Virus record (IMG/VR): IMGVR_UViG_3300025598_000023 | Location: 1 to 64,000 of that record | Length of the DNA stretch: 64,000 nt | Origin: a virus | Strand: one strand, 5' to 3' | Shown here: piece by piece, positions 5,604 through 45,400 of the stretch | Numbering within the stretch: the stretch's first letter is position 1 | Layout of the letters: every line of letters begins with the position of its first letter | The notes under the pieces: generated by a model | The model's input: only the letters and a program-made list of their open reading frames with translations | What the model was told of the DNA's origin: nothing | Database searches by the model: none | Translations under genes and position numbers: made by a program

Positions 5604-6803
5604 TTATTGGAATGAAAGGTTGCTTACTGCGATTTCACTTAGGTAGTCAGCAGCATTACCGAAGCTGCTTGCAACGTTAGTGAGTTCGATGTAACCATAA
5701 CGAGTCATAAAGCCAACAACTGGTTCGAATGTTGATGGATCAAGGATCACACCAGATGACATTAGAGGGATGTATGGGCAATAGAACGCTGCAGCGTCTG
5801 CTTCACTTGTACCTTTGTAACCAACTAGAACTGGAATAGTGTCAGTTGCATAGCTGTCAACATAGATACGCATTGCACCGTTGAGAGTACCAACGAACTT
5901 AGTGTTTGTTGGAGCTTCAAAAGCACCTTCTGTAGTACGAGCAAATGCTGAAGTAGTTGCACTTTGTAGAACAGTTAGTGCAGCACTTGAAACAACAGCC
6001 CAGTTACCTGCACCACGACGAGTGCGTTGTGCAATTAGGTTAGCAGCGCGGTTGATAAGAACAGCTAGAGCAGCATGTTCGTCACCAACGAATGTTGCAG
6101 TACCACTTACAGTAGCTTGGTTGAATGTGAATTCACTTGCAGCTAATGAACGTAGGCTATAAAGGATTTCTTGATCGATTTCAGCAGTGATTTCTTGTGC
6201 AAGTGCTGCCATGATTTCTGCTTCAATGTCAAGACCATGCATTGCTTGAGCGTCTTGAGCAGCTTCAAAAGTCCAACGTGCGCTGAGCTTACGAGTCTTA
6301 GCTTCAACTGGTTGCTTTAGAATCTGGACGTTCAAACGACGACCTGGTGTACCTTCGAGTGCAGTAGTAAATCCAGCACGACCATCAGGGCTATTTACGC
6401 CTGGTGCAGCACCTGAATAACCACTAGCAATCTTGAATGGTGAAAGTGCTTCATCATTGATTGCAGCATTTGTACCAAACTGACCACTACCATTACTTGT
6501 GAAGTTATCTGCATAACGAACACGTAGAGTGTGAATCTGTGCGACTGGACCAGTCATTGGTTGAACACCAACGATTTCGTTAGCGATAACAGTAGGCATA
6601 ACACGGCGGATAACAGGTAGGATAACACGGTTAAGTGTTGCTACGTTACCAGCAGCAGTTGCGCCACTAGTTGCGTTTTCTGCAAGATAACGCTTTGTGT
6701 TTTCGAGCACCATGCTCATTGTTGTACGACGATTACCGCTTAGACCTTCCAACAGGGCTGCTTTGGTTTCGTCCCAACGGCTTTCAATTAGTTCTTGTGA
6801 CAT
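5604..6803 (-). CDS. gp23: Major capsid protein (T4 gp23-like)
   Basis: VGVQPMTGP, KTRKLSARWTFEAAQDAQAMHG, AFYCPYIPL and GFMTRYG motifs; position after scaffold and protease. Confidence 0.97.
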   Translation of the reverse strand: MSQELIESRWDETKAALLEGLSGNRRTTMSMVLENTKRYLAENATSGATAAGNVATLNRVILPVIRRVMPTVIANEIVGVQPMTGPVAQIHTLRVRYADNFTSNGSGQFGTNAAINDEALSPFKIASGYSGAAPGVNSPDGRAGFTTALEGTPGRRLNVQILKQPVEAKTRKLSARWTFEAAQDAQAMHGLDIEAEIMAALAQEITAEIDQEILYSLRSLAASEFTFNQATVSGTATFVGDEHAALAVLINRAANLIAQRTRRGAGNWAVVSSAALTVLQSATTSAFARTTEGAFEAPTNTKFVGTLNGAMRIYVDSYATDTIPVLVGYKGTSEADAAAFYCPYIPLMSSGVILDPSTFEPVVGFMTRYGYIELTNVASSFGNAADYLSEIAVSNLSFQ

Positions 6804-13876: not shown

Positions 13877-13925
13877 CAAATTGACCTTGTTAAATAACTT
13901 TATATTATTTATAGGTAGCAAAAAT

Positions 13926-14791: not shown

Positions 14792-14986
14792 ATGGCACTG
14801 GTGGAACGATACGAAAAAGACGTAAAAAATATTAAACAAAATATTTTAAGGATCGTTTGGTATATGCGTGGTGGGGTTACTTATTCAGAAGCAATGGATA
14901 TGAGTATTCAGGAACGTGAAATAATTAGTAAAATTATTGACGAAAATTTAGAAACTACAAAAAAGATAAATTTACCTTTTTTCTAA
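14792..14986 (+). CDS. gp51-like assembly catalyst; probably the -1 frameshift extension of the upstream ORF
   Basis: WYMRGGVTYSEAMDMSIQERE resembles gp51/GT-type chaperone C-termini; its frame is open back to the slippery site at 14747. Confidence 0.7.
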   Translation: MALVERYEKDVKNIKQNILRIVWYMRGGVTYSEAMDMSIQEREIISKIIDENLETTKKINLPFF

Positions 14987-15294
14987 CCAAAAAGTATCCA
15001 AAGTTCAACCAATAATCCTAAAAGTGGTCCCCATCCAAGAAATAGAAAAAATAGTAATCCTACAAATAATTCACCTTCGCTGATAGGAAGTATAATCAAA
15101 TACCACCATAACACTCCACCAACTACAACATATGAAATTATTTTAAACCAACTTGGTAAATCTGCATTAGAACCTGATGAACCAGAACTGTTTTGTGATT
15201 CCACTGCTACTGATTGGCGTCTTAATAATTCTGCTTTTTCACAATCAGGACAACGCAACCTGAAAGTAGTTCCATGAAGATAACACGTAGCCAT
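14983..15294 (-). CDS. Small membrane protein with N-terminal CxxH/CxxC motif
   Basis: Two C-terminal hydrophobic segments; GGGAG RBS before ATG 15294; has its own sigma70-like promoter. Confidence 0.7.
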   Translation of the reverse strand: MATCYLHGTTFRLRCPDCEKAELLRRQSVAVESQNSSGSSGSNADLPSWFKIISYVVVGGVLWWYLIILPISEGELFVGLLFFLFLGWGPLLGLLVELWILFG

Positions 15295-15313
15295 AAGCAA
15301 CTCCCTATACTTT

Positions 15314-15341: not shown

Positions 15342-15352
15342 GAAGTATTAGA

Positions 15353-15777
15353 TGATGTGCTACGCACATCAGTTCAGGTGCTATCGCACCTTCACCTTTT
15401 TTCAGTTCTTCTTTATAATCAATCTTTTTAGTTTCATTTAGACTGGATTTCAGACATAGATTCCCTTAAGCAGGAAATCTATGCCCTTGATGCTTCATTT
15501 GAGCTATCAAACAGACACTAACAAAAGGAACTTGTTTCCAAGTGGGGCGGTTAGCCTATACCCCTTTACATCCAGTAGATTATACCAACGGTTCCTACAT
15601 ATACCCTTGTTAGCGAATATATGTAAGCTGAGGTTGCTTATTCTCAGAGCCTCATCGTTTAGCCTATCGTTTGGCCAAACGTTGTCCATCACAGCAATGT
15701 CGGGGTGCTGACAACCTTCAAACTATTCATATTTGGGACTATGCTGCCTGAAATGCCTATGTGCCTATGGAGCCAAT
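15353..15777 (-). ncRNA. Candidate large structured RNA and/or replication-origin region
   Basis: ~430 nt without a credible ORF, with at least 8 stems, a GAAA tetraloop, long-range pairings and an upstream promoter. Confidence 0.6.
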
Positions 15778-15783
15778 GGGATA

Positions 15784-15812
15784 ATAGTATATATGTAAAT
15801 TGCCTTTGTCAA
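15784..15812 (-). promoter_or_regulatory. Sigma70-like promoter reading into the structured region
   Basis: TTGACA (15812-15807), 17 nt, TACTAT (15789-15784). Confidence 0.65.
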
Positions 15813-16927
15813 TAACTTTTTTGAAAATCTTTAACAAAATATGCTTTGCTTATAAGTGTTGCATTTAATTCTGTGCTATTATTGATTTTTTTAATATTTT
15901 CTAGTCCATTCATATAAGTTTTGTATACTTTAATTTCATTGTTTTTTGCATAATTTAATAATTTTAAACTATCTGGACTATCAGTATTATTTGTATGTAA
16001 AAACTTTTGAGAACCAATAACGCTGCTTATATCGCTATGATATAAAGGATATCTACCCATTGCTATATTCCAAGCTGAATAATATTTTGTATATGGACCA
16101 TTTTTACTCATATCTTTGCCTTGAATTAAATGTACAAGTTCTGGTGAAAATTCAGGCAGAGTTTCAAACCATTTACATACATTCCATGCTTGTTTTATGA
16201 ATAATTCTGGTAAATCTTCACTTAAATAAAAACTTTCTTGTTTACTACCAACAATATCAGACAAGTTATCATCGAGAAAAAAACAATACCATTTATTATC
16301 ATGTAGATATACTTTTGCTTTTTCGTGACCCATTATGTCAGCACGTGTGGTATATTTGTTTAAATTTTTGATAATATTTTCATGATAATTAGTAAGGTAA
16401 TATTTGGTTGTTTTATTAAACCTTAAAGTGCTACCAATATGATATATCCAATAATCACCCATACTATCATAAAAATTTATTATATCAGAGTAATGGATTG
16501 GAATAATATTGATTTTTATATTTGGAAAATAATTTTTTTTGATGGTCTTTGCGTGTTCAACAGCAAATTTATATTCAGGATCATCATATAGTGATGTCCT
16601 GTCAATTATTACTAATTCATCTAACAATATATGATTATCTACAAAAGTTTTTAATATAGTGTGACTATCATAACCACCGCTATACCAAAGAGACACATAT
16701 GAATAACGTTCTCTTATTTGTTCACATCTTATTTTAACTAGCTCTTGCCAAGTTTGTTGCGGCTCAATGTGCCAACTTGACTTATTCCATGTATTCTCCA
16801 TCCATTTGAAGCTAATCTTGGAAACATCACCAGAACTTAATTCAATAGCGCGTATTTTACTGTAGGTTTTTTCTCCATTTACATCATAATAACTATCTTC
16901 ATGGTTATACACTTGTGTTTTATTCAT
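15809..16927 (-). CDS. PP-loop (adenine nucleotide alpha-hydrolase-like) enzyme
   Basis: SLWYSGGYDS motif (SGGxDS, as in asparagine synthetase/QueC/TilS-type ATP pyrophosphatases); substrate unknown. Confidence 0.7.
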   Translation of the reverse strand: MNKTQVYNHEDSYYDVNGEKTYSKIRAIELSSGDVSKISFKWMENTWNKSSWHIEPQQTWQELVKIRCEQIRERYSYVSLWYSGGYDSHTILKTFVDNHILLDELVIIDRTSLYDDPEYKFAVEHAKTIKKNYFPNIKINIIPIHYSDIINFYDSMGDYWIYHIGSTLRFNKTTKYYLTNYHENIIKNLNKYTTRADIMGHEKAKVYLHDNKWYCFFLDDNLSDIVGSKQESFYLSEDLPELFIKQAWNVCKWFETLPEFSPELVHLIQGKDMSKNGPYTKYYSAWNIAMGRYPLYHSDISSVIGSQKFLHTNNTDSPDSLKLLNYAKNNEIKVYKTYMNGLENIKKINNSTELNATLISKAYFVKDFQKSY

Positions 16928-16928
16928 T

Positions 16929-17513
16929 TTAATCCAAAGTTAAACCTTCAATACTATCTAATCCAATTTGGATACTAATTCTTTTCTTAGGTATATTTCG
17001 CACACCATGTAATATTGCTGAATTAAGAACACACCACTTGCGTAATGGAATTTTTACGCTACAAATTTCTGTAAGAACATCGTGGTTAAAAACTCTATGA
17101 CCTTTGTGTCTTACAATTGGATAACCTTTTTCTTGATAAAACATTGTTTCGTGGTCATCACCACCACTTTCTAATAGGTAAAGTAGTGTATACAAACGTG
17201 ATGAATCGCAGTGTGCTCCTTTAAAATCACGCACATCTTGCTCACTTGTTTCGCTTTCTGCAACCCTAACATTGACTACACTTTTATCAGTTATGTTTTT
17301 GTATACCCATTCTTTGATCTCTTCATCAAGATGATATGATGTAAAAGCAGTATTTTTTAGTTGAATACCATTAATCGTGATGATTTCTTGGTTAATTTTC
17401 TCCCAATCAATTGTAGTATCAATGTTTCTTTTAATACTTTTATATGCTCGTTCTATAAAATCTTCTGGAACATCTGGTAAATTTTTTGGAAACTTATAAA
17501 ACCATTCATTCAT
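16929..17513 (-). CDS. Putative 2OG-Fe(II) oxygenase-like protein (paralog 3)
   Basis: GAHCD...LHGV...RISIQ: HxD..H triad plus C-terminal Arg. Confidence 0.65.
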   Translation of the reverse strand: MNEWFYKFPKNLPDVPEDFIERAYKSIKRNIDTTIDWEKINQEIITINGIQLKNTAFTSYHLDEEIKEWVYKNITDKSVVNVRVAESETSEQDVRDFKGAHCDSSRLYTLLYLLESGGDDHETMFYQEKGYPIVRHKGHRVFNHDVLTEICSVKIPLRKWCVLNSAILHGVRNIPKKRISIQIGLDSIEGLTLD

Positions 17514-18108
17514 TTTTAAACTCCTTGATATCTTTAACGCTTACAAAACCAACCTGTAATGCAATCCGTGGTTCTGGAATATTAATTACGCTGTGCAAAA
17601 TGCGTGAATTTAATATAATCCACTTTTTAAGAGGAATTTGTATTCTGCCTAGTTCTTCCAACTTATCGGTTTCTAATGCTGTTACACAATTTTCTCTTAT
17701 GATTGGTTTATTTTTTTCTTTATAAAAAACAGTGGCATGATCTGGTCCGCCGCTTTCAAGCAACCAAATTAATACATAATTGCGAGTAGTATCAGTGTGT
17801 GGACCACGCCAATCACGTGGATCATCGGGATTAAAATATGTCTTTGATGATTTTACATTAGCTATTCCTGTTTTAGCAACATTGTCATATACCCATTTTT
17901 TCATTTCTTTTTCGGTTTCATATTGGAAAAAAGCAACTGATTTTTTCAATTCACCGTTTTTAATAAAAGGTGCTTGTAACGTTGCATTAAAATCAACATA
18001 TTCAATAACTTCTTTATTAACACTATCATAAATCATTTTTTCTAATTCATCAGGCAAATCTGGTAAATCTGGAAATTTCCATAGCCATTCTTCTATTTGA
18101 TCACTCAT
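17506..18108 (-). CDS. Putative 2OG-Fe(II) oxygenase-like protein (paralog 2)
   Basis: GPHTD...LHSV...RIALQ. Confidence 0.65.
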   Translation of the reverse strand: MSDQIEEWLWKFPDLPDLPDELEKMIYDSVNKEVIEYVDFNATLQAPFIKNGELKKSVAFFQYETEKEMKKWVYDNVAKTGIANVKSSKTYFNPDDPRDWRGPHTDTTRNYVLIWLLESGGPDHATVFYKEKNKPIIRENCVTALETDKLEELGRIQIPLKKWIILNSRILHSVINIPEPRIALQVGFVSVKDIKEFKNE

Positions 18109-18117
18109 TGTATTCTC

Positions 18118-18876
18118 CTACCATTTTAATTTTTGTGACACTTTGTCGAATAATTTTGATATTACATAACCATTAATTGCAATAATACATACTATAACAT
18201 ACATTTTATCAATATCCATAGTAGATTTTACATCTATCATGTATGTTCCTAAACCATGATATCCACCAATGTTACCAAATACTACTTCAAGGGAAATCAG
18301 TGTTCGCCACATATATGCCCAACTTGTGCTACAAAGTGAAATGATAATTGGTGCAGTGGCTGGCAAATATACATGAATAAAACTTTGTTTTATACCCCAA
18401 TTTAAATTCTGCACATGCTTTTCCCATGTCAGCTTTATTGTGTCAAAAGCAGATAATATCTGGTAACAAGTTGCAAAATATACACTAAAAACAACTACTA
18501 CAATTACAACATTGCTTGATAATCCAAAAATTAAAACTAAAAAAGGGATTAGGACAAAACTTGGTAGCGGAGTAAAATATCCACAATAACATTCTATTAT
18601 TTTGCGAAAAAATGGAAATATCCAACATAAACATATTGTTATAGCAATACTAATACATAAAATTGCCCACGCAGTAAACAACATTATGATAGTGTCGAAA
18701 TAAGTTATCCATAGCAATTTTGTTTGTAGCATATTAATTGCAGTTGTTGTTATTGTAATAATACTTGGAAAAACTAATGTTTCATTAATGGCAAAACAAA
18801 TGCACTGCCAAGCAACTATTAATAAACCAATGGCTATAATATTAATGATGTAGTTTTTTGATAAAATCTTTTTCAT
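18118..18876 (-). CDS. ABC transporter permease (NitT/TauT type)
   Basis: About 6 TM segments, PLPSFVLIP, HVYLPA, WRTLISLE...GLG motifs like TauC/SsuC. Confidence 0.85.
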   Translation of the reverse strand: MKKILSKNYIINIIAIGLLIVAWQCICFAINETLVFPSIITITTTAINMLQTKLLWITYFDTIIMLFTAWAILCISIAITICLCWIFPFFRKIIECYCGYFTPLPSFVLIPFLVLIFGLSSNVVIVVVVFSVYFATCYQILSAFDTIKLTWEKHVQNLNWGIKQSFIHVYLPATAPIIISLCSTSWAYMWRTLISLEVVFGNIGGYHGLGTYMIDVKSTMDIDKMYVIVCIIAINGYVISKLFDKVSQKLKW

Positions 18877-19462
18877 CTATATCTTTTGGTAATTTCGTTA
18901 ATCCATTGTATGAAAGTAATAGTATTTCATCTGCGATTTGCTTTGCTTCGTGTATATTGTGTGTAATATATAAAACATTTAAGTTAAGTTGTATAATCTT
19001 TTCCTTAAAGTCACTTAATACATTATAACTGGTCATTGCATCAAGACCGCTAAGCGGTTCGTCACATAATATAGTTTCTGCACCACTGCATATTGCTCGT
19101 ATCAAAGTAAATCTTTGACGTTGACCACCACTTATACTATTTGGTTTTTTATCAATTAAATCTGTTAATTTCCATTCAGAAGCTATATCATACCAATTAT
19201 TTTTGCATGTAATTTCCATATTTTTCTTTACACTATACCATGGAAATAATTGATGACTATCTTGAAATACAGTAAAAATATTATTGCTTTTGATATAACC
19301 AGTATATTGCATCACACCACGAATAGCATTAATTATACTGGTTTTACCCACACCACTACTACCCATAATAACTGTAATAGTTTGCGGCTTTAATTCAATA
19401 CTGATGGGAGAAAATAAACTTCTCCCATCAACACTGATTGTAAGGTTTTTAACAGCGAGCAT
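18842..19462 (-). CDS. ABC transporter ATP-binding protein
   Basis: Walker A GSSGVGKT, VFQ..QLFPW, signature ISGGQRQR, Walker B ILCDEP, H-loop ITH. Confidence 0.92.
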   Translation of the reverse strand: MLAVKNLTISVDGRSLFSPISIELKPQTITVIMGSSGVGKTSIINAIRGVMQYTGYIKSNNIFTVFQDSHQLFPWYSVKKNMEITCKNNWYDIASEWKLTDLIDKKPNSISGGQRQRFTLIRAICSGAETILCDEPLSGLDAMTSYNVLSDFKEKIIQLNLNVLYITHNIHEAKQIADEILLLSYNGLTKLPKDIDEKDFIKKLHH

Positions 19463-20469
19463 TAATTAATTTTTACCAATTTAGTATCAAACACTTTTTG
19501 AGAATCAGGCATCTTGTCAGGATCAACTTTAAGTGTTCCGCTCGTATACATTAATCTAAGTGTAGAAAGAGCAGCTTTTAAACTTGTATCGTAGGTGTCA
19601 TTATTCTCTTTCTTCATTTTCAGCACATCTTCTGGTGTAATATCTTCTACTTTGTCATTATTCAAGTATACTTTAATAGCAGATACAGGGTCTTTAGTAT
19701 ACTCTTTGATTGCCTCACTTTGTGCTTCAATCCATGCACGTGCTAATTCTGGATTTTCTTTTGCCCACTTTGCTGTAGTATAGCTTATGTTTGCAAAACC
19801 AAAACTTTTTACGTTGTCAGGTTTAGATACGATATGCGCTTTTTTCATAGCAACAATAGTATTTTGAAGCGGTGAACCAAGAAAAGCACAAGCTAATTTT
19901 GGCGTATCTGCTGTCATAAGTTGAAATGCTTCTTCTCTTGTTAGAATAACAAGGTTGTTATTGAGTTTTTCGGTTTGATTAGCACCGACCTCTGCTGCCA
20001 AATACTGTCGTAACATAAGTTGTTCACCAGCATTTAACGATTTTACCATAATTTTATCGTTTGGTCCTATGTCAGTAATCTTTTTAATATTAGGATCAGC
20101 ACATACTAACCAAAAATCAAATGTCTCCCATCCAGAAAGCAATACTAACTTGCTTGGGTCTTTTTCTAAAATAGGTGAATAACCGTTAATACCACCAATA
20201 ACAATATCAAGACGCCCTAATAATAAACTATCATTGGCTGTTGAAGCATTGGTAACTTCATCTAAAACTACTTTTAAATCTTTAATTCCGTGCTTGGCAG
20301 CAAATTTTGGAAGAAGTTCAACAGTTTTATAAAGTAGCGGTTGAATAGTAGCAAGTTTACTTGTTTTGCTTATATGAATTTCTGTAGCAAAAACTCCGCA
20401 TGTGGTTGCAATTAATGTAAAAATTGTCAATAATGCAATTTTAGTATTAGAAATAAACCTGTTAATCAT
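19462..20469 (-). CDS. ABC transporter substrate-binding protein (NitT/TauT/NMT1-like)
   Basis: Signal-peptide-like N-terminus, ANDSLLLGRLD, KWAKENPELARA pattern. AAGGAG RBS places the start at ATG 20469. Confidence 0.85.
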   Translation of the reverse strand: MINRFISNTKIALLTIFTLIATTCGVFATEIHISKTSKLATIQPLLYKTVELLPKFAAKHGIKDLKVVLDEVTNASTANDSLLLGRLDIVIGGINGYSPILEKDPSKLVLLSGWETFDFWLVCADPNIKKITDIGPNDKIMVKSLNAGEQLMLRQYLAAEVGANQTEKLNNNLVILTREEAFQLMTADTPKLACAFLGSPLQNTIVAMKKAHIVSKPDNVKSFGFANISYTTAKWAKENPELARAWIEAQSEAIKEYTKDPVSAIKVYLNNDKVEDITPEDVLKMKKENNDTYDTSLKAALSTLRLMYTSGTLKVDPDKMPDSQKVFDTKLVKIN

Positions 20470-20502
20470 ATTTTTCTCCTTTCTTACGTTAACAGATAAC
20501 AC

Positions 20503-20527
20503 AAAAAACATCAATATAAATTGATGT
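20503..20527 (-). terminator. Intrinsic terminator/attenuator upstream of ABC operon
   Basis: On - strand ACATCAAT-TTAT-ATTGATGT followed by TTTTT; stem is AU-rich. Confidence 0.55.
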
Positions 20528-20552
20528 CACAATGTTAAATTTTAATATGAAA

Positions 20553-20673
20553 GGAGTTTGCAGTTAGTGGGTTGACTGCTACGGTCGGCGTTTAGTAAGG
20601 CTATACTTACTTTACAAGGCTTGCGCCTTTTGCGTCGATGTGGGTTCCGAGGTCACTGGTGTGGCCTTACTCC
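20553..20673 (-). ncRNA. Candidate riboswitch-like leader or small structured RNA
   Basis: GC-richer 121-nt block closed by GGAGT/ACTCC with 4-5 internal helices; starts 5 nt after TATAAATA. Strand uncertain because G.U pairs favour +. Confidence 0.6.
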
Positions 20674-20678
20674 AAAAT

Positions 20679-20686
20679 TATTTATA
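20679..20686 (-). promoter_or_regulatory. T4-type late promoter TATAAATA
   Basis: Exact T4 late consensus immediately upstream of the structured block and ABC operon. Confidence 0.6.
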
Positions 20687-20696
20687 ATTAAATTTC

Positions 20697-21278
20697 TTAC
20701 TCTATAAATTTACCACGCAATTCAAAAATTTCATCTAACCCAATTTGAAATCCAATTCTATTTTCAGTGAGTAAATCTACGCCGTGTATAATTCTACTAT
20801 TGAGAATACACCAAGTATTTAATGGAATATGAACACGGTCTATTTCTGTTAAAAGATTATAATCGTGAACTCTTGCTTTTTTTTCTCTAATAATTGGGTA
20901 ATTTTTTTCTTGATACCAAACTGTATATGGTTTTTCACCGCCAAGCCTAAGCAAATAAATTAAAACATAATCACGTGTTTTATCTGTATGTGCACCCTTG
21001 TGTTCCCCATCAGTAGTTTTTGTAATACTAACTGCATTGCATCCAGATACAACAATATTTTCATAAAACCAATTTTTAATATTTTCTGTTAATTTATACT
21101 GAACAAACGAAACATTTTGTTTTGATTTATTATCTACTACATCAATTTCGCTGGCTGTTTTCGGCCACCACCAACGGTCTTCACGTATATTATTAGCTGA
21201 TATTAATTTTAAACTTTCAGTAATAATTTCTTGTGGAACTTGTGGTAAATCAACAAACTTATAACACCATTGCTGCAT
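20697..21278 (-). CDS. Putative 2OG-Fe(II) oxygenase-like protein (paralog 1)
   Basis: GAHTD...IHGV...RIGFQ; same N-terminal W..KF..LP..P motif as the other two paralogs. Confidence 0.65.
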   Translation of the reverse strand: MQQWCYKFVDLPQVPQEIITESLKLISANNIREDRWWWPKTASEIDVVDNKSKQNVSFVQYKLTENIKNWFYENIVVSGCNAVSITKTTDGEHKGAHTDKTRDYVLIYLLRLGGEKPYTVWYQEKNYPIIREKKARVHDYNLLTEIDRVHIPLNTWCILNSRIIHGVDLLTENRIGFQIGLDEIFELRGKFIE

Positions 21279-21289
21279 TTAATAATCCC

Positions 21290-21931
21290 TTATATTGGTT
21301 TTGTTGAAATTACAATTTCTTGAGTGTAATGTTCATCATCAAACAATGCAAGTGGTATACGTTCTTGAATATCGGTCATTGATAAGTGTAAGTCGCTATA
21401 ATACTTATTATCAATTTCTTGAGTCCAAGATTCAAGAAGTCTATTTTTAAGTAAGTTTGTTTTAGCTTTGCCTATGCGTATTAATAAAACGCCATGTTGT
21501 GGGTCTTGTATTTCATGTCTTAGTGCATTTATATAAGCACGTTGTGCAAATCTAGTTAATCCATATGCTAGTCGATTAGGCAGTATATGATCACCATTAT
21601 GTGCACTACCAATAAAGATAACTTTACTCCACTTTTCTGCACGTTGTTTCAAATAACTGTGCGTAAATTTAATTTGTCCAATTAAATTAGTATACAAAAT
21701 AGTTTCAATATCATCCCATTTTTGTTCAAGATGTGGTCTGTCACCATGTGGATCAACCCCACAACTCAACACCAAATAATCATATTGACTTAAATCTGTA
21801 TTATAATCAGCAGTTCTTATATCAAATTCTTTTCTCCCAACTGCAGTTACTTCTATATCAATATTATTCATCAATTCTGCAATGGCAGCACCAACGCCTG
21901 TTGTTCCACCAATAATTAAAGCCTTACGCAC
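21290..21931 (-). CDS. Short-chain dehydrogenase/reductase
   Basis: ALIIGGTTGVG Rossmann motif, TNLIG, VIFIGS; catalytic motif is YGLTR (YxxxR variant). Confidence 0.8.
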   Translation of the reverse strand: MRKALIIGGTTGVGAAIAELMNNIDIEVTAVGRKEFDIRTADYNTDLSQYDYLVLSCGVDPHGDRPHLEQKWDDIETILYTNLIGQIKFTHSYLKQRAEKWSKVIFIGSAHNGDHILPNRLAYGLTRFAQRAYINALRHEIQDPQHGVLLIRIGKAKTNLLKNRLLESWTQEIDNKYYSDLHLSMTDIQERIPLALFDDEHYTQEIVISTKPI

Positions 21932-25246: not shown

Positions 25247-25275
25247 AATATAACAAGTTATCTATTGGTTGTCAA
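25247..25275 (-). promoter_or_regulatory. Sigma70-like promoter, leaderless gp47 transcript
   Basis: TTGACA-17-TATATT with extended TG; 6 nt to ATG. Confidence 0.7.
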
Positions 25276-26225
25276 TAACTTTTAATTCCACAGTGTTTGG
25301 CACAAACCCGTAACTTTGGTTCTTTTTCTATAGTATTATAAAAACTATCAAAATATTGCAAAATTTCACTTAATGTATGGTGTTGCAAACTATTATTTGT
25401 ATAGTCATTTTGCAAGATTTGTTTCTTCCATATAGATAAATCAAAATAATTTTTTGTTTTTGCAGCAAATACTCCAGTCATACAACATGGAAAAACTTCA
25501 CCGTCCCAATTTATAAAAATTTCTTTTTTTTCTAAACTCTGACATATAACACTTTTATTAACTATATTTTTTATTATATGATTTCTTTCAGTATCTTTTG
25601 TTATACTTTTATCACTGTTATAATTTCGTGTAAATTCATTTTCAACTGTTCTATCGCTATAGATAGTAAAAAAACGTTTAAACCCAAGTTTTTGTGATAA
25701 ATTTCTTGCTTGTTCTATTTGGTGTTCATTGTGTTTAAAAATAATATATTGCCAACGAGCATTGCCGCCATTTTCTATAAAAATTTTAGCATTATTAATA
25801 ATCTTATTAAAATCTGTATTAACTCTATATATCGAATGAGTATCTTCTAAACCATCAATAGCAAATGTAACTTTAGAACCCGTTGGCAAATTAAGTGCTA
25901 ACCATTTCCAAAAATTTTTATTGCGTAAGCTACCGTTTGTATGAATTGAAATTTTAGCAGATGCGCAATTTTCTTTTATCCATTCTATAATATCTATAAA
26001 ATGTTTAGATATGAGCGGATCACTAAAAGTGCCTTTAAAAATTATATGTTTTAAATTACTGTAAATTTCTTGTGGTAACCACGTTTGTAAGTTATCTACA
26101 GTAATTTCTCTTTTATGATTTAATTCGGATAAAAAATCTGAGTTTGTTCGTGGACATTGTGGACAAGCTGCATTACATCGACTTGTTAATTCCAATTCAA
26201 TTGATTCAATGTCACTAACATTCAT
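25272..26225 (-). CDS. Radical SAM protein with SPASM/twitch-type Cys cluster
   Basis: CNAACPQC, TNGS, FAIDG; C-terminal C..GEVFPCC..CAKHC. Confidence 0.9.
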   Translation of the reverse strand: MNVSDIESIELELTSRCNAACPQCPRTNSDFLSELNHKREITVDNLQTWLPQEIYSNLKHIIFKGTFSDPLISKHFIDIIEWIKENCASAKISIHTNGSLRNKNFWKWLALNLPTGSKVTFAIDGLEDTHSIYRVNTDFNKIINNAKIFIENGGNARWQYIIFKHNEHQIEQARNLSQKLGFKRFFTIYSDRTVENEFTRNYNSDKSITKDTERNHIIKNIVNKSVICQSLEKKEIFINWDGEVFPCCMTGVFAAKTKNYFDLSIWKKQILQNDYTNNSLQHHTLSEILQYFDSFYNTIEKEPKLRVCAKHCGIKSY

Positions 26226-27052
26226 TCATTAAAACCAAAATCACCGCCGCCGCCACCTCTTATGGCATTGTCTGTTTGGCGGGTATAACTTGGGTTGAGT
26301 CCATTGGCTTCAAGGATATCGTCACGAAGGTGTTGGTTCCGCTTCTCAACGTTAAGAACTCTAGTAAAACTATTGGTGATAGTAGCAGTATAATAAGCAA
26401 AAGGATTATTAGATTTGCTTTCATCAAATTGTAGCCCTACCTGTGATAACTGTAGCAATGCCTGAGAACGCATCTCATCATTGTATGTATAACCACGCCA
26501 GTTACCTTTTGAACCATAACGTTCACATAGTTTCATAAACATACGAGCAAGATTAGGTGTCATCTTGCCATGGTCACGATTAAACCAACCATTTTCAATA
26601 CCGCCTTCCCAATGGCTCTTGGCTACACACATTAATTCATCATTTTCATTGAATCTAAAATGTTGAAATGGTGGAAAGTTTACTTTTACATGATGGTCGG
26701 CAGTTGTTTTAAGACTTTTCTTACGACCTGGTGCTAACGGAATGTGATCCCATGTTGTGATTCTAAAAACCAAATCGGTTTTTGAAATACTGTGCCAATC
26801 TACTGCATGTTGGTCTAATTTTGTTTTTACGCCGCTTGATTGTGCAGCCTCCCATGCTTGTTTAGCTAATCTATCAGCACGTGCACGTTTTGCTTCTGCA
26901 ATTGTTTTTTGATTAATTTTACTAACACTAGGCAATATTAAATCATAAACTTGATCTTCTGGCGTTAGGAATGTGCAAAATGTATTTTTACTTTTTGCTA
27001 TCTCTTTTAATAAATCTTTGTTGGTTAAGTATGGTGTGCGTTTTGTTGTCAT
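26222..27052 (-). CDS. gp55: Late-transcription sigma factor (gp55-like)
   Basis: YLTNKDLL, NWRGYTYNDEM, FDESKSNNPFAYYT motifs; gp55-gp47-gp46 synteny as in T4. Confidence 0.88.
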   Translation of the reverse strand: MTTKRTPYLTNKDLLKEIAKSKNTFCTFLTPEDQVYDLILPSVSKINQKTIAEAKRARADRLAKQAWEAAQSSGVKTKLDQHAVDWHSISKTDLVFRITTWDHIPLAPGRKKSLKTTADHHVKVNFPPFQHFRFNENDELMCVAKSHWEGGIENGWFNRDHGKMTPNLARMFMKLCERYGSKGNWRGYTYNDEMRSQALLQLSQVGLQFDESKSNNPFAYYTATITNSFTRVLNVEKRNQHLRDDILEANGLNPSYTRQTDNAIRGGGGGDFGFNE

Positions 27053-27106: not shown

Positions 27107-28165
27107 ATGGCATTATTTAATTTAACACCAAACCAATATTATAGTAGAACACCAAATACCAATCAAGCTACAACACCGTTTGATTTGATTCAACGTGATG
27201 TAGTTAATTTTGGTTATGGTAATCCTACTTCTATTGCTTCTTTTAACGGATATAATAGCAGAAGTAGTGCTTATACTTTACCTGGCACTAGTGGATATAA
27301 ATTGCCAGCACAAAATTACTACAACTATGGTGTAAACAATCCTGGTGGATTTGGTGTTCAAACTTTAAAAAACAGTTTAGTTAATACTGCAATTAATAGT
27401 GCTCTACAAGGTTTAGTTTATGGTCTAACTGGTGGACCATCTAATGATCCTACAAATGGTCGTTTGAGTGGCACAGGTGTAGCACAAGGCGGAACACAGC
27501 AAGATTTGCTACAACCAGTAAATGACAGCAGTAGAACAGCTTGGCAAGATGATACCGAAGATCGTGTAATTATAAGTGACCAAACAGGCAGATTTATTGG
27601 GCAAAGTCCGCTATTTGAACCACTTAACCAAACAGGCGGCGTATTATTTCCATATACACCCGTAATTCAAGTTGCACACAAAGCAAGTTATGACATGATG
27701 AATTTGGTTCATACAAACTATACAACACCAGCTTATCAACACAGTTCTGTTGACAGTATATCAATACAAGCACAATTCACGGCAAATTATGCTGCTGAAG
27801 CTGAGTATGTAATTGCAATGTTACACTTCTTTAGAACAGTAACCAAAATGTTTTATGGTCAGGATCAATTAGCTGGCACACCACCACCTGTCTTGTTCCT
27901 AGATGGATATGGACCATACACATTTGACCATATACCTATTGTCATCACAAATTTTGATTATTCATTGCCTAATGATGTTGATTACATAAGTTGCACTATT
28001 AAGGGTAGTTCTACTACTGATAAACAAAAAGTTCCTACAAGTTTAAATGTTAATATAAGTGCTGTGCCTACATACAGCCGCAACAAGATTAGCAATCAAT
28101 TTGGATTGGAAAAATTCTCAACTGGATCACTTCTTTCTAATGGCAGTAGCGGAGGATGGATTTAA
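27107..28165 (+). CDS. Baseplate/tail tube-initiator-like protein
   Basis: FPYTP, GTPPPVLFLDGYG, IVITNFDYSLP motifs; precedes the gp53-like gene. Confidence 0.6.
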   Translation: MALFNLTPNQYYSRTPNTNQATTPFDLIQRDVVNFGYGNPTSIASFNGYNSRSSAYTLPGTSGYKLPAQNYYNYGVNNPGGFGVQTLKNSLVNTAINSALQGLVYGLTGGPSNDPTNGRLSGTGVAQGGTQQDLLQPVNDSSRTAWQDDTEDRVIISDQTGRFIGQSPLFEPLNQTGGVLFPYTPVIQVAHKASYDMMNLVHTNYTTPAYQHSSVDSISIQAQFTANYAAEAEYVIAMLHFFRTVTKMFYGQDQLAGTPPPVLFLDGYGPYTFDHIPIVITNFDYSLPNDVDYISCTIKGSSTTDKQKVPTSLNVNISAVPTYSRNKISNQFGLEKFSTGSLLSNGSSGGWI

Positions 28166-39455: not shown

Positions 39456-42400
39456 ATGGCAAAACGTAAAAGTGAAAACTTTTTACCACAAGTTTTTAGA
39501 ACTTTAGGAAATAAGCGTTTCTTAAATGCCACAATGGACCCACTTATTCAGGAACCAAGCCTGAAAAAGATGTATGGTTATATTGGTCAACAAGACCAAA
39601 GTCCTGTGTATAGTACAAGTGATTATTATATAAACGAGAATGACAGCTATAGTCAATTCTACCAACTTGAACCAGGCGTAGTAATTAAGAAACGTCAGTT
39701 AGGCACAAACACATACAAAGTTAGTAATGTTTATAACTATGTGGATTTATTAAATCAAATTTCTGCTGATGGTGGTCTTAATAATAATCATGACCGTCTT
39801 TTTACAAATCGTTATTATAGTTATAACGGATTTGTAGACCTTGATAAACTTACAAACTATCGTCAATATTATTGGGTGCCTGGCGGTCCTATGCCTGTTG
39901 ATGTTACTGCTGATTTAACACCAACACAAAAAGATTTTTATTTTCATCGTGTAAGTTATGTTGCTAACAATCAAACTGAATTACAAAGTGCTGCACTTGG
40001 TGAAACTGGTTATAGTGTTGATGGATACAACAATGTTGTTAATCCAACTATCACTCTGGTTCGTGGTGGCAGTTATAATTTTTATGTAAATCAAACAACA
40101 CAATTTTGGATTCAAACAGAAATTGAAACAAGTGGTACAAGCACTGTCCAAAGTAATATTTCTACTCGTGATGTTCTTGGTGTATCAAATAATGGAACTG
40201 AAAGTGGTATTGTTACTTTTACTGTTCCACTAAGCACTGCACAGGATTATCTAATAAATTATCCTACTTTGGGACAAACTGTAGATATTATCGTTGATGA
40301 TATTACTTACGAAGAGCTACAAGGCGTTAACTATGATAACTTTGTTTTACAATACAGTTTAGATGGTGTGCGTAGTTTTGATGGCAAATATGTAGTCTTG
40401 ACAAGTAATACAGGCTGGGCGGATGTTGACTCTAGCCAATGGCACGGTGTTTGGCGCATTAATGTCGATCCAGTAACACGATTAATGAATTTAACTTACA
40501 TTGCTGCTTGGGATAACCTTTATAAAGTATTTGTGAATCAAGGTGATGTGTATGGTCACGTTTATGCTTATAAAAACAACGTTGGTGTAGTCACTAAGTT
40601 TCCAACTCTTAGCGCAGCACAAAATGTGCTTTATTATGTTGATGCAGAAAATCAACTAGTTTATGGAACTATACGTTTAGTTGACCCTACACCAAATAGT
40701 TTGCTTAATGTAAATGACATTATAGGTAAAACAAATTACACAAGCCCAAATGGTGTGCAATTTACAACAGGACTAAAAGTTAAATTTACTGGTCTTGTTG
40801 TGCCAAGTGAGTATCAAGGCAATGAATATATTGTAGAAGGTGTTGGCAGTAGTATTAAACTTGTCAAATACAGTGATTTGGTAACACCAGAAACTATTAA
40901 TACTAATTTGGGAAGTAGTTTTGGTAATAGTCGAGGTTTTGATGCTGATGGCACTGGATTTGATGGAACCACTAATAGTCCAGAAATTAAAGATTATATC
41001 ACAATTAATCGTGCAAGCGTAGACGGAAATAGTTGGAGTCGCAACAATCGTTGGTTCCATCGTGATGTGCTACAAGCAGCAGCAAATTACAACAACACAA
41101 ACTATGCATTTGATAGCAATCAACAAGCAAAGCGTCCAATTGTAGAATTTTTACCAAACCTTAAACTTTATAATTATGGTCAAAATTATCGTGGTTATAT
41201 TACTTGTTTTGATAATGTAACAACAAGTGCCTTTTCGCAAATTGAAGGTGTCAATAGTTATGCTGTGCCTAAAGGCACATATGATAGTAAAAACAATAGA
41301 TTCGTTTATAACAGTGATGGTATACAACTATTAAATGGTGTAACAGTTGTTTTTATTAATGATATTGATCCAACTGTTCGTGCTACTCTATATCAAGTTC
41401 AAAATAACAAAACTCGCACTGCTGCAACATATAATCCTATTACTATAGGTTATTCAGGTGCAGATTCAACTCAACTTTTTATTAATGAATTAGGCAATAT
41501 TACTTTGGGTCAACATGTTACTGGCACTGGTATTGCTCAAAATACTACTGTTTTAAATGTTGATACCGTTAATAATGTTGTTACAATCAGTAATCCTATC
41601 ACAAGCGAAATACCAATTGGTCAAACAATTTATTTTGATAATAGTTTTGACCAAATTCATCTGGTTCCAATTAAAACATTTAGCGATGGTGATACTGTTG
41701 TTGCTATGGAAGGTGTTAATAATCAAGGCAATATGTATTATTACGCAAATGGCACTTGGACACTTGCACAAATTCGCAATAGTCGTCCACAGGCTCCGCT
41801 ATTTGATATCGTGGATGCAAACAGTATAAGTTTAAGTGACCAAACAGCTTATCCAAGCAGTAATTTTACTGGTAGCCAATTATTTGGATATGCAGTCAAT
41901 TTAACTCCAAATGCAAAACGTGATAGTGAATTGGGTTTTGCTCTTGTTTATAAAAGTATAGGTAATTTGGGAGATATTGTATTCCAAAATTACTATGCAA
42001 CCGACACATTTGATTATAATTTAAATCAAATTGACACTGTAAAAAATGTAAACACAGGCTATGCTGCTGTAATTAATAGTTATAATAATTATAGTTTTGC
42101 TAATGGTTGGTTCCGTGTTAGCGATAAAACAAAACAATACATCACCAAAACTTATAATGCTACAGTTATACAACTTAATAATTTTGATTTGGGTGTTGTT
42201 TATAACAATAGCTACTATGAAAACAATATCTTTGTTTATGTTAATGGTGTTTTGCAATCACGTGACAAATATACGCTACAAACAAGTTCTATAACAAGTG
42301 TTGTTAAATTTACAAATGATGTAGTGATAGGTGATCGCATATTTGTTAAAATATATGGCACAAGTGCACAGTATAAGCAAACTTACACTATGCCTCGCAA

Positions 42401-45400
42401 TTTAACTAACAACAGTGAAAATTCAGAATTTACAACAATTACACTAGGCCAGGTTCGCAATCATTTGATTGAAGTTGGTAATAATCTACTTAATTTAGTG
42501 GGTGAACCAGCAGGCGCTAATAATTTCCGTGATTTGAATTTTAACTATGTTGGTGGAAAATTACTACAACATAGCTCAAGTTTGCGACCAGCGGCATTGC
42601 TGTTTGCAAATAGTGATGTTGATCCTGTTCAAATTATACGCTTCGCAGCAGATAGCTATACAAATTTTAAAAATCAGTTGCTTGATTACATAAACAATCG
42701 TGAATTTGCTGATCCAACTAACTATGCAGCTTGCTTAGATTCCGTTCTCAAAGAGTTTGTAAATTTAAGCATTATCAGTTCACCTTTTTATTATACCGAT
42801 ATGGCTGCAAGTGGAAATGATTATTTAAAAAACACATACACCGTTAACAATACAACATATCGCAGTTATAATTTAACCCAAGATTTTAGTGATAATAACA
42901 AAGGTTATCGTTCACTATTAGTATACTTAAATGGTGTTCTGTTATTGAAAAACATTGATTATGTAATTAACTCAAAAGTAATTACTATCAATGATAGCGT
43001 CACTATTTCACGCAATGATGTTATTGAAGTTGTAGAGTATAGCAGCACTGCAGGTTGTAATATACCAGCTACACCAACAAAATTAGGCATTTATCCTAAA
43101 TTTACTCCACAGATTACTGTAGATGATAGCTATGTTGTGCCTACTACTGTTATCATTGGACATGATGGCAGTATTACCACTGCTTATGGTGACTACCGTG
43201 ATAATATTTTATTAGAATTTGAAAAACGTGTATACAACAATATCACAGTCACCTATGCCAATAATACTGATTACGATTTGCCAAGTGTTGTGCCTGGTGC
43301 TTTTCGCAAAACTGATTATAGCCTTACTGAATGGACACAATTACTTACACCTGCATATTTGCGTTGGAGCACTATCAACAATGTAAATGTATTTGATAAT
43401 ACAACTACTACTGGAAATGAGTTTACTTGGAATTACAGTAGTGGTGTAGATAAGTTGTTTTACAATCCAGTGCCAGGTTACTGGCGTGGAATTTATAGCT
43501 ATTTTTATGATACTGATAGACCACATACACATCCATGGGAAATGTTGGGTTTTGCAGAAAAACCAACTTGGTGGGAATTGCGTTATGGACCAGCACCATA
43601 TAGTAGTGCTAACAATGTTTTATGGACTGATCTTGAATTAGGTTTTGTATATGGCGGAAATCCAAATTTAAGTTATATTAACAGTCGTTACAGCCGTCCT
43701 GGTCTAAGTCAAATTATTCCAGTAGATGAACATGGTAATCTTGTGCCGCCAAACTTAAGTGTCATTACAAATTATGATGTTGCTACAGCAAGTCAAAATT
43801 GGCAAGTAGGTGACCAAAGCCCACAAGAAACTGCTTGGCGTCGTAGTGTAGATTTTCCATTTGCTGTCATGATTGCATGGTGTTTAGCAAGACCAGCAGA
43901 ATGGTGTGCGTTAAAATATAATACTCGTGATTTGACATATGTTGCAGCACTAAATCAAATAATCAATACAAAGACAAATAATCGCACATTTGATTTTACT
44001 GCTACAAGTGCAAATGATTATATACCAGGTTACAATGTATGGTTGCGTGATTATCTTACAAGCAATAACCTTGATATAATTGAAAACTGGAATAATGTCG
44101 TTAACAACAGCACATTCAATCTTGTTTACAAGATGGGTGCTTATACTGATAAAAGTTATCTAACAGTTGTTGCAGATCAAGTTAGTCCACAAAGCACAAA
44201 TAGTAGTGTTATTATTCCACAAGAAAATTACCAAGTTAAAGTTACTAAAAGTGCGCCTGTAGCACGTGCAGTATATAGTGCGGTTGTTGTTCAAAAAGTA
44301 ACTAATGGTTTCCAAATTACTGGATTTGACAAAGAACGTCCTTACTTCTTGACAATACCAAGTCGTGTCAGCAGTAACAATTATGGAATTGCAGTTGGAA
44401 ATCAAACAGCCATTATCTATCTTGATGCAGCAGAAGGTATTGTTACATATCCTTATGGCACTATCTTTAATACTACACAACAAGTAGTAGACTTCTTAAT
44501 AAGTTATGGTCGTTATCTTGAATCACAAGGATTTAGTTTTAATGAATTTTTAAGTGATAATTCAACTAAAAGCGATTGGACACTTGCTGCAAAAGAATTT
44601 TTATTCTGGGAACAACAAGATTGGGGTGATAGCACAGTTATAAGTTTAACCCCAACTGGCACCAGTGTTAATTTTAATAGTCTGTTTGGTATCGTTGACA
44701 CTATCACTAACACAAACAATTACACTAAAATTATCAATAGTGATAATGTCACGCTTACTGGTCGTGATTATCGTGTGTATCGTGATGACAACAACTTTAG
44801 TGTAACGCTGAAAAATGCGCAAAAAGGTATACACTTACTGGATATTGCTATTGTTCAGTATGAGCATACACTTATTTTTGATAATAACACTGTGTTTAAT
44901 GATATTCTTTATGATGAACAAACAGGCAGTCGTCAATTCCGACTGCGTATTGATGGCAGCAAAACACAAGATTGGAATGGTTCACTTTATGCGCCTGGTT
45001 TCTTTGTTAATGTAAGCGATATACCACAATGGGCTGCTTATACTGATTATTACACAGGCGATATTGTTCTATTCAAAGACAAGTATTATGCAGCACAAAA
45101 GTTTATACCAGGCACACAAAAGTTTGCAACCAGTGACTGGTATCTCATTAACGGCGATTTACTGTCTAAAAACCTAATTCCAAATATGGCAAGTGGTGCT
45201 GCACAGTTTATTAATTTCCATGATCCTGATGCAACTGACTTAAACAGTGCAGCAGATGCACTAAGCAAGAGTGAAACTGGATTTAGTCCACGCCAATACT
45301 TCACAGATTTGGGATTAGATAATACAAGCCAATATAAATTTTATCTTGGTATGATAGCTCAAAAAGGAACACAAGCTGTTCTTAATGCTTATCTACGCAA

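Follow-up and report, generated by a model that had tools for sequence, protein, structure and literature searches.

Gene content of the minus-strand island

The DNA considered here is the first 64,000 positions (the window, at its full length) of the 111-kb linear IMG/VR record IMGVR_UViG_3300025598_000023 (CheckV completeness ~33%), and the subject is an island of eight minus-strand open reading frames (ORFs) occupying 15809-21931, which encodes an ATP-binding cassette (ABC) importer, three small oxygenase paralogs, a PP-loop enzyme and a short-chain dehydrogenase/reductase (SDR). An original prediction, made from the letters of the window alone, had described these as one phage-borne island for importing and modifying a small molecule. 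All eight genes were found at the predicted coordinates and in the same orientation, and all are real; they fall, however, into two predicted transcription units and not one, with a 182-nt gap splitting the gene of oxygenase A from that of the substrate-binding protein (SBP). The operon behind this gap is best described, from sequence comparison, as an auxiliary cassette for uptake, of a kind known from phages, to which an RNA of an apparently new class is joined. The features of the locus, all on the minus strand, are as follows:

21290..21931 (-), SDR, 213 aa; Pfam adh_short
20697..21278 (-), oxygenase paralog A, 193 aa; lies ahead of promoter and leader
20679..20686 (-), late promoter TATAAATA, core ATAAATA; exact match
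20553..20673 (-), structured leader RNA of ~120 nt; covariation, model R1 at 93.5 bits
20503..20527 (-), AT-rich hairpin and U-run; read from the sequence
19462..20469 (-), SBP, 335 aa from a conserved ATG; NMT1/SsuA-like, predicted secreted
18842..19462 (-), ABC ATPase, 206 aa; ABC_tran
18118..18876 (-), ABC permease, 252 aa; BPD_transp_1
17506..18108 (-), oxygenase paralog B, 200 aa; paralogy and HxD...H...R alignment
16929..17513 (-), oxygenase paralog C, 194 aa; predicted fold
15809..16927 (-), PP-loop enzyme, 372 aa; motif and predicted fold
15345..15790 (-), structured non-coding RNA of ~400 nt; conservation and covariation, own promoter

The 182-nt gap between the oxygenase A and SBP genes holds the promoter and the structured leader. 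Since 8 nt are common to the SDR gene and the RusA-like gene, and the oxygenase A gene comes next, these two genes are predicted to ride on the gp47-gp46-RusA operon as a first unit. The six genes from the SBP to the PP-loop enzyme abut or overlap, with stop/start overlaps throughout, and are read as a second unit, a tight operon behind the ATAAATA late promoter and the leader. The AT-richness that had been judged by eye was borne out by a GC profile, in which the island has 30.9% GC vs 35.8% for the window and lies in the lowest 0.4 percentile of 6.1-kb segments.

The window gave PHROG matches to a major head protein, prohead protease, portal, and baseplate hub and wedge, and also to gp46/gp47-like SbcCD and a gp55-like late sigma factor (26222-27052). 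The major capsid protein is 68% identical to that of Pseudomonas jumbo phage PA5oct and 63-68% identical to those of other 280-470-kb phages. This T4-like gene set and the capsid kinship to jumbo phages agree with the phage origin first proposed, and we take the source to be a fragment of an uncultured T4-like jumbo myovirus, whose DNA was found across many freshwater metagenome runs. The locus lies between DNA-metabolism genes and baseplate genes. No tRNAs were found in the window, PADLOC returned generic ABC-ATPase matches only, with no tie to a defence system, and neither the island DNA nor the SBP, PP-loop and oxygenase proteins had a match among 50,697 GenBank phage records.

The SBP, ATPase and permease appear to make up a complete NitT/TauT-type ABC importer, the three-part transporter of the original prediction. 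The ATPase matched Pfam ABC_tran (PF00005, 3.8e-20) past the curated cut-off, and its motifs could be read as Walker A GSSGVGKT, signature ISGGQRQR, Walker B ILCDEP and H-loop ITHN; its full-length match to the TauB model (8.5e-24) scored far below the cut-off of that model. The protein is short, being without a C-terminal regulatory domain, and its start shares one base with the SBP stop. The permease, whose gene overlaps the ATPase gene by 35 nt, also passed the curated cut-off for its family (BPD_transp_1, PF00528, 8.8e-14), and its matches to named models (SaoP 3e-10, TauC 2.7e-5, SsuC 2.6e-4) were all below cut-offs. Matches to SaoP-type models were set aside as uninformative, since the 'Sao' models refer to a selenoprotein-linked operon. 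The SBP was assigned by weak family matches, by its homologues and by its signal peptide. It matched NMT1 at E 0.0087 (16.4 bits, cut-off 20.5) and TIGR01728 SsuA_fam at 3e-5 across nearly its full length (23 bits, cut-off 163), and its profile against the PDB reached NrtA (0.022) and TauA (0.085); its homologues bear PF09084/PF13379 or the JGI name NitT/TauT SBP. Alignment places the start at a conserved ATG at 20469 behind AAGGAG, not at the TTG at 20514, and the signal peptide, by eye, ends VFA/TE (AHA/ETE in relatives). A search of GTDB genome contigs with the SBP profile gave a single protein, an orphan NMT1_2 protein of 27% identity encoded in a Hyphomicrobiales metagenome-assembled genome, adjoining TauD/TfdA-, FAA-hydrolase- and TctC-type genes and uninformative on the ligand.

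The three oxygenase paralogs, of ~195 aa each, are mutually 39-45% identical (A vs C 45%, A vs B 39%), and H101-x-D103...H169...R178 is invariant in 21 oxygenase sequences, with paralog A among those aligned. All top structural matches of the AlphaFold model of paralog C (pLDDT 92.7) were 2-oxoglutarate (2OG)/Fe(II) oxygenases of the double-stranded beta-helix fold. In VIA-align it reached Z 10.7-11.2 with AspH, proline 3-hydroxylase and the lysine halogenases/hydroxylases of the BesD/HalA group, the top matches having an rmsd of 2.8-4.0 over 133-167 residues, and its best Foldseek matches were prolyl hydroxylases at about 1e-4 (1.5e-4). Taken with their mutual identity, the invariant motif and predicted fold sustain the assignment of the three paralogs as probable small Fe(II)/2OG oxygenases, and HxD in place of HxG/A argues for the hydroxylase type, not the halogenase type. 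None of the three had a match in Pfam (2OG-FeII_Oxy families, TauD), NCBIfam or PHROG, and PDB sequence and profile searches with the oxygenase paralogs and the PP-loop protein returned nothing meaningful; the Atlas gave PF13640 and PF05118 as weak family leads for the oxygenases. In related loci the copy number ranges from one to three: paralog C is the copy conserved beside the PP-loop gene, with an orthologue in 14 of 15 close loci, and orthologues of paralog A (53-79% identity) occur in contigs L006, L013 and L015-17.

The PP-loop enzyme carries the motif LWYSGGYDS, in which W81, G85, D87 and S88 are invariant across 18 sequences (six relatives read SSGYDS). Its model (pLDDT 89.9) aligned in VIA-align with human ASNS (Z 10.2, 287 aligned residues, rmsd 5.9), E. 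coli AsnB (Z 10.1, 294 residues) and beta-lactam synthetase (Z 9.8), the top alignments spanning 269-294 residues, and the remaining PP-loop enzymes reached Z 5-7.7 against the 372-aa protein. Foldseek matched LarE, ASNS, CarA and TilS. The assignment as a PP-loop enzyme holds by motif and predicted fold, and the protein appears closest in fold to the asparagine synthetase B/beta-lactam synthetase group, the high rmsd indicating that the likeness to AsnB is a domain-level similarity only. The N-terminal Ntn glutaminase domain is absent, as ~55 residues precede the PP-loop domain and AsnB and beta-lactam synthetase have ~500-550 aa. Searches of the full phage record with PF00733, PF06508 and PF01507, run beside positive controls, gave no match at E<=10, and the Pfam scan gave none either. 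GTDB genome contigs yielded no relative to the PP-loop profile, and the Atlas neighbours of the PP-loop and oxygenase proteins are 93-100% viral, mostly without a Pfam family; by these and the GenBank phage searches both families look virus-specific.

Variants of the PP-loop gene were seen among the related contigs. Two tandem paralogs (368 and 367 aa) stand in place of the single gene of the window in L004:4394-6591 and L005:10001-12198. A distant subgroup, 24-26% identical (L032:3526-4791, L033-L036, L038 and L040), directly follows a gene of the UDP-glucose/GDP-mannose dehydrogenase family, and after it come four conserved genes of unknown function and then a SPASM radical SAM gene; this subgroup could represent an amidation route for uronic-acid sugars.

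The SDR matched adh_short (PF00106, 6.2e-12, 45.8 bits vs a cut-off of 26.6), and its dinucleotide motif GGTTGVG (GGTxGxG) is invariant, as are S109 and Y123. It is an atypical member, keeping the dinucleotide motif and the Pfam match and departing from the catalytic Ser...YxxxK pattern. The assignment by motif stands; as a member of the island the SDR fares less well, being optional (9/16 related loci) and sitting in the upstream operon.

Late promoter and leader RNA

The sequence TATAAATA at 20679-20686 (-) opens the gap ahead of the ABC genes. Its core, ATAAATA, is also found 22-26 nt before the structural genes at 27107, 36060 and 55122 (sites 27084, 36038 and 55096, +). Ahead of the leader its position is kept in 10/10 aligned relatives, and in 43 of 67 distinct instances it precedes the leader by 2-6 nt. 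Because ATAAATA precedes structural genes and the phage encodes a gp55 homologue, the T4-type late promoter that had been postulated ahead of the ABC genes is well supported, and it is conserved. The full octamer TATAAATA occurs 2 times in 64 kb vs ~11 expected, so that the late promoter core of this phage seems to be the heptamer. ATAAATA was also found at 13906 (-), 15 nt inside the annotated TTG start of a 772-aa ORF, the true start of which may be later than annotated.

The leader follows the promoter directly and has 52% GC inside a region of 31% GC. Its structure consists of a closing helix, a hairpin and a long-range helix that encloses two hairpins. In an alignment of 11 sequences covariation was seen at 16 of 31 pairs, and in the larger set of 70 distinct sequences at 22 of 29, with 89.6% of cells paired vs 23-52% when the partners are slid, in an alignment fitted to the model, which somewhat favours structure. 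The strands at the junctions (GACGC, UUUAC, AACGCC and CCGUA) vary little or not at all, and the covariance model built for the leader (R1) scores the copy in the window at 93.5 bits. Conservation of the leader far exceeds that of the downstream proteins, with 80-84% nucleotide identity where the SBPs are ~41% identical. Neither the leader (none at E<=1) nor the ~400-nt RNA matched an Rfam family, and the single-sequence fold of the leader region was not significant alone (z -1.5).

Between the leader and the ribosome-binding site lies an AT-rich hairpin, ACATCAAT/ATTGATGT, followed by a U-run (20503-20527). This hairpin is possibly a terminator or expression platform; a terminator scan made no call at it, as it has too few G-C pairs. 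Hairpin and U-run also occur in L004 and L018, and L006-L016 have other sequence at this place, so that the platform is not conserved.

A covarying aptamer-like domain in the 5' untranslated region of transport or metabolic genes is what is looked for in a riboswitch, and the leader has this arrangement. We regard it as a riboswitch candidate and apparently a new cis-acting RNA class, and it is the strongest functional clue at this locus, one that the original prediction did not include. It resembles the thiamine pyrophosphate or xanthine/NMT1-motif riboswitches found before NMT1-type importers in being a multi-helix 5' leader with invariant junctions and covarying stems, and with a hairpin and U-run in some loci; it differs from such riboswitch-transporter operons in that it has no Rfam match, is so far on viral contigs only, starts from a late promoter and heads an unusually varied cargo. 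In two contigs the leader is doubled ~1 kb apart, each copy heading a binding-protein gene of its own: TctC and then DctP in L065 (4999-5114 and 6061-6171), an unknown gene and then DctP in L128 (8261-8377 and 9254-9364).

A second structured RNA, of ~400 nt, adjoins the operon. It occupies 15345-15790 (-), between the PP-loop stop and a 105-aa ORF at 14983-15300, and has its own promoter-like TTGACA-17-TACTAT (site 15812-15784). Across 15 related contigs its nucleotide identity is 72-94%, where the flanking proteins are just 44-49% identical, and 30 of 95 predicted pairs covary. It was also found in L024 and L025, which are without ABC genes, and is therefore probably an independent RNA gene that bounds the variable cassette.

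Recurrence of the cassette and exchange of its transporters

The order SBP-ATPase-permease-oxygenase-PP-loop was found in 15/15 related IMG/VR contigs (about nine distinct lineages), at a site running from RusA/gp46 to the baseplate hub. The genes thus co-occur in relatives as a syntenic core. Contigs from four other runs bridge both island borders, which, together with the synteny, argues that the contig is not chimeric there. Two of the refuting conditions named in the original prediction, genes that do not co-occur and a chimeric contig, thereby fail. The 15 contigs are among 42 viral loci picked out by an alignment-based PP-loop profile, where a single-protein scan of viral contigs had found none. 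One distant contig, L020, has the same set of ABC and PP-loop genes, its transporter proteins being 24-44% identical to those of the window (SBP and permease 24-27%).

Replacement of the cassette was seen most directly in L013. In this contig gp46, gp47 and gp55 are 93-95% identical to those of the window and the downstream RNA is 94% identical, and yet the SBP, ATPase, permease and PP-loop proteins of L013:7705-11095 are just 38-46% identical to those of 15809-20469 in the window. This pattern indicates that the cassette is an exchangeable, fast-turning-over unit bracketed by conserved RNA elements.

In other loci the transporter itself is of a different family. A TctC-type binding protein, of the tripartite tricarboxylate transporter (TTT) family, adjoins the PP-loop gene in 10 loci, including L024 and L025, related contigs whose flanking genes are the same; TctA adjoins it in three loci, and a Gram-negative porin in L019. 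Model R1 places the leader ahead of ABC-type, TTT-type and porin-led operons alike. An exact-pattern scan of IMG/VR for the leader core returned at least 120 viral stretches, and 80/80 fetched loci were confirmed by the full model. The first genes after the leader, counted over instances with at least 1 kb downstream, were:

DctP binding protein of the tripartite ATP-independent periplasmic (TRAP) type: 18
TctC: 9
unassigned: 7
NMT1-type SBP: 5
PP-loop gene: 5
porin: 3
PotD-like SBP: 3
fatty-acid-desaturase-like gene: 3
hexapeptide transferase: 2
TctA: 1

Among the 33 leader instances with at least 3 kb downstream, uptake genes were present in 30, the PP-loop gene in 19 and an oxygenase in 9, and the PP-loop gene, wherever it occurred in these 19, was accompanied by uptake genes. 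One leader-led operon (L122) includes an AMP-binding enzyme. The link between import and modification that had been proposed gains support from these comparisons: distant phages keep the PP-loop gene, the oxygenase and the leader, and have the ABC importer replaced by TTT or TRAP binding proteins or by porins. That unrelated transporters are swapped repeatedly while enzyme and leader stay the same is the best evidence at hand for a single function served by uptake and enzymes.

Phage uptake auxiliary genes are usually single components such as PstS. The cassette resembles cyanophage PstS and the auxiliary metabolic genes of marine phages in that binding proteins and 2OG oxygenases are phage-borne and presumably expressed during infection; PstS, however, is one component, and the phage of the window has what looks like a complete three-part importer in an operon with enzymes and an RNA leader. 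In marine phages, tctA and 2OG-Fe(II) oxygenase genes have been listed as viral auxiliary metabolic genes of unknown role (PMC4164917, PMC6359870). In the literature searched we found no description of the cassette or of the leader. A phage that carries a self-sufficient three-part importer wired to enzymes, with the same enzymes and leader recurring in at least 120 viral stretches beside other uptake families, points to a widespread and so far undescribed control of late-infection uptake by freshwater phages. The system offers handles for experiment in a soluble binding protein, a compact RNA and two virus-specific enzyme families with clear catalytic motifs, and with the ligand known, thousands of viral proteins now called 'hypothetical' would gain a function and a new riboswitch class might be added.

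Proposed function and phage context

The best-supported reading, which we hold with somewhat more confidence than doubt, is that the cassette serves the late import of a small organic anion that is then hydroxylated and ATP-activated. Transcription would be started at ATAAATA by the gp55-like late sigma factor, and the ~120-nt leader would gate expression in the manner of a riboswitch. The SBP, permease and ATPase would form a self-sufficient NitT/TauT-type importer for a small organic anion (carboxylate or sulfonate), two or three small Fe(II)/2OG hydroxylases would hydroxylate the imported anion, and the PP-loop enzyme would activate a carboxyl (or equivalent) group by adenylation for transfer to ammonia or an amine; the atypical SDR and one more oxygenase copy would be contributed by the operon of DNA-metabolism genes upstream. 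Carboxylates are the typical ligands of TRAP and TTT binding proteins, and NitT/TauT importers transport small anions. In AsnB-type enzymes a carboxylate is adenylated and then handed on to ammonia or an amine, AMP-binding enzymes likewise adenylate carboxylates, and UDP-sugar dehydrogenase makes uronates. The sequence of anion import, hydroxylation and amidation was proposed because of these ligand classes, the AsnB-type chemistry, and the uronate and AMP-ligase neighbours of the PP-loop gene and leader. The comparisons themselves show the gene content, the folds and catalytic motifs, the operon layout, a conserved promoter and leader, co-occurrence across phages and exchange of the transporter for other types; we infer that the imported molecule is the substrate of the enzymes, as well as its chemical class, the order of the reactions, their product and the sensing of a metabolite by the leader.

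Two known kinds of system were compared with the cassette. The original prediction had drawn an analogy to bacterial tauABCD, and this stands for the architecture of importer plus oxygenase but not for the enzymes, which lie outside the TauD/TfdA family. In E. coli tauABCD and ssuEADCB a NitT/TauT-type importer is encoded along with an Fe(II)/2OG- or O2-dependent oxygenase whose substrate is the imported anion, a layout that the phage appears to share; the phage cassette adds a PP-loop enzyme, which tau and ssu are without, is controlled by a late promoter and RNA leader in place of Cbl/CysB, and in relatives has its ABC system exchanged for TTT or TRAP parts. The pairing of an AsnB-like synthetase with a 2OG oxygenase is typical of carbapenem and clavam pathways. 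The cassette resembles CarA/CarC and beta-lactam synthetase/clavaminate synthase in having an AsnB-like synthetase fold (Z 7.8-10.2) beside 2OG/Fe(II) oxygenases. It differs in that the phage protein is without the N-terminal (pseudo)glutaminase domain, has no PF00733 membership and no crotonase- or CEAS-type partner, and has an importer beside it in place of an exporter or resistance gene; there is no sign of a beta-lactam product.

Several observations weigh against the import-and-modification reading. The leader also precedes genes that are not transporters (the fatty-acid-desaturase-like gene and the hexapeptide transferase), and the leader-linked binding proteins have, as their closest relatives of solved structure, proteins with dissimilar ligands: dicarboxylates, isethionate and sialic acid in the case of the TRAP proteins, nicotinate, terephthalate and aspartate for the TTT proteins, and polyamine, gamma-aminobutyric acid and opines for the SBP_bac_8-type (PotD-like) proteins. 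With such ligands and such cargo, the leader may not report one imported compound and may instead sense a general signal or bind a phage protein. Ligand inference from the solved relatives of the DctP, TctC and PotD-like proteins was tried and dropped, as there was no convergence, and the SBP of the window appears too divergent for its own ligand to be inferred. In the SDR, YxxxK is replaced by Y123-G-L-x-R127 in all 5 orthologues, so that the canonical catalytic lysine is absent. Since neither the PP-loop protein nor the oxygenases could be placed in a Pfam, NCBIfam or PHROG family, their chemistry is read from fold and motifs only, and the nearness of the oxygenase fold to prolyl 4-hydroxylase and AspH, and of the PP-loop fold to tRNA modifiers, makes a macromolecular target possible.

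This last point leads to the alternative that survives best, unlikely as we judge it, namely that the enzymes act on a macromolecule, the oxygenases hydroxylating virion or host proteins and the PP-loop enzyme modifying tRNA, DNA or a carboxyl group of a protein, and that the transporter supplies a co-substrate (e.g. 2-oxoglutarate or an amine) or shares regulation only. Among the fold neighbours are prolyl 4-hydroxylases, one of them the viral enzyme of PBCV-1 (Z 10.1), as well as AspH, TilS, TtuA, NcsA and Cap9, the late promoter is common to the structural genes, and the locus is flanked by DNA-metabolism and baseplate genes, all of which would suit such a target. Against it, the PP-loop and oxygenase genes stay in operons with three unrelated uptake families, behind the same leader, across deep divergence; moreover, the top oxygenase matches include free amino-acid hydroxylases and halogenases, and the 372-aa protein has no recognisable tRNA- or DNA-binding domain.

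It is improbable, in our estimate, that the leader is a general phage late-mRNA element (protein-binding, stabilising or acting in anti-termination) and the eight genes loose host-derived morons with no common pathway. The varied cargo (four SBP families, porins, a desaturase-like gene, an acyltransferase and an AMP-binding ligase), the expression platform that is not conserved, and a low-GC cassette swapped between otherwise near-identical phages would all fit that account. However, the cargo is biased to uptake proteins (30/33) and to one PP-loop family (19/33), the invariant unpaired GACGC, UUUAC, AACGCC and CCGUA with covarying helices are the usual riboswitch pattern, and the PP-loop and oxygenase families look virus-specific, not like recent host loans.

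Sulfonates are carried by ABC, TRAP and TTT systems. The scavenging of organosulfonate sulfur, as a counterpart of tauABCD/ssuABC in which the 2OG oxygenases release sulfite and the PP-loop protein activates or reduces sulfur in the manner of CysD/CysH, is nevertheless very improbable: the best named transporter models (SsuA_fam, TauB, TauC, SsuC), the PDB profile matches to NrtA and TauA, the PP-loop fold matches to CysD ATP sulfurylase (Z 7.1) and APS/PAPS reductases (Z 6.2-6.5), and an isethionate-binding TRAP protein among the relatives of leader-linked DctP speak for it, but all the transporter scores are far below subfamily cut-offs, the ~195-aa oxygenases belong with the prolyl/lysyl/aspartyl hydroxylase and BesD/HalA fold groups and have no TauD/TfdA (PF02668) match, the PP-loop protein aligns better to AsnB/beta-lactam synthetase (Z ~10, 270-294 residues) than to CysD/CysH (about 155 residues), and PF01507 is without a match in the phage genome.

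The import of an anion for hydroxylation and activation can be extended to the wider set of phages, and this extension we put forward tentatively, as possible but doubtful. A phage-specific riboswitch class, started from late promoters, would govern modular uptake systems (ABC importers, orphan TRAP/TTT binding proteins and porins) coupled to a virus-only AsnB-like ligase and 2OG hydroxylases, such that import by the infected cell is rewired late in infection to yield a hydroxylated, amidated metabolite that the phage needs, by a pathway for which no cellular counterpart was found in GTDB genomes.

On the basis of the predicted SBP signal peptide and of the porins in sister operons, a Gram-negative host is proposed. 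A separate 6.5-kb viral contig, L099, holds a Betaproteobacteria-type two-piece transfer-messenger RNA (tmRNA) at 6168-6505 (permuted tmRNA model, 132.8 bits; beta_tmRNA, E 5e-36) plus the leader with DctP and TctC genes; this tmRNA hints that some phages bearing the leader system infect Betaproteobacteria.

Near the island, a radical SAM gene with a SPASM domain lies at 25272-26225 (-). It stands in the gp47/gp55 interval in the window and in the gp46/RusA interval in relatives, and is thus mobile inside one neighbourhood. A 7-deazaguanine pathway was considered and dropped, as this gene is not QueE-like, and no functional tie between it and the island was found. Finally, a single 4665-aa ORF occupies 39456-53453 (+) of the window, in the baseplate/tail-fibre module, after a 1130-aa baseplate wedge homologue.

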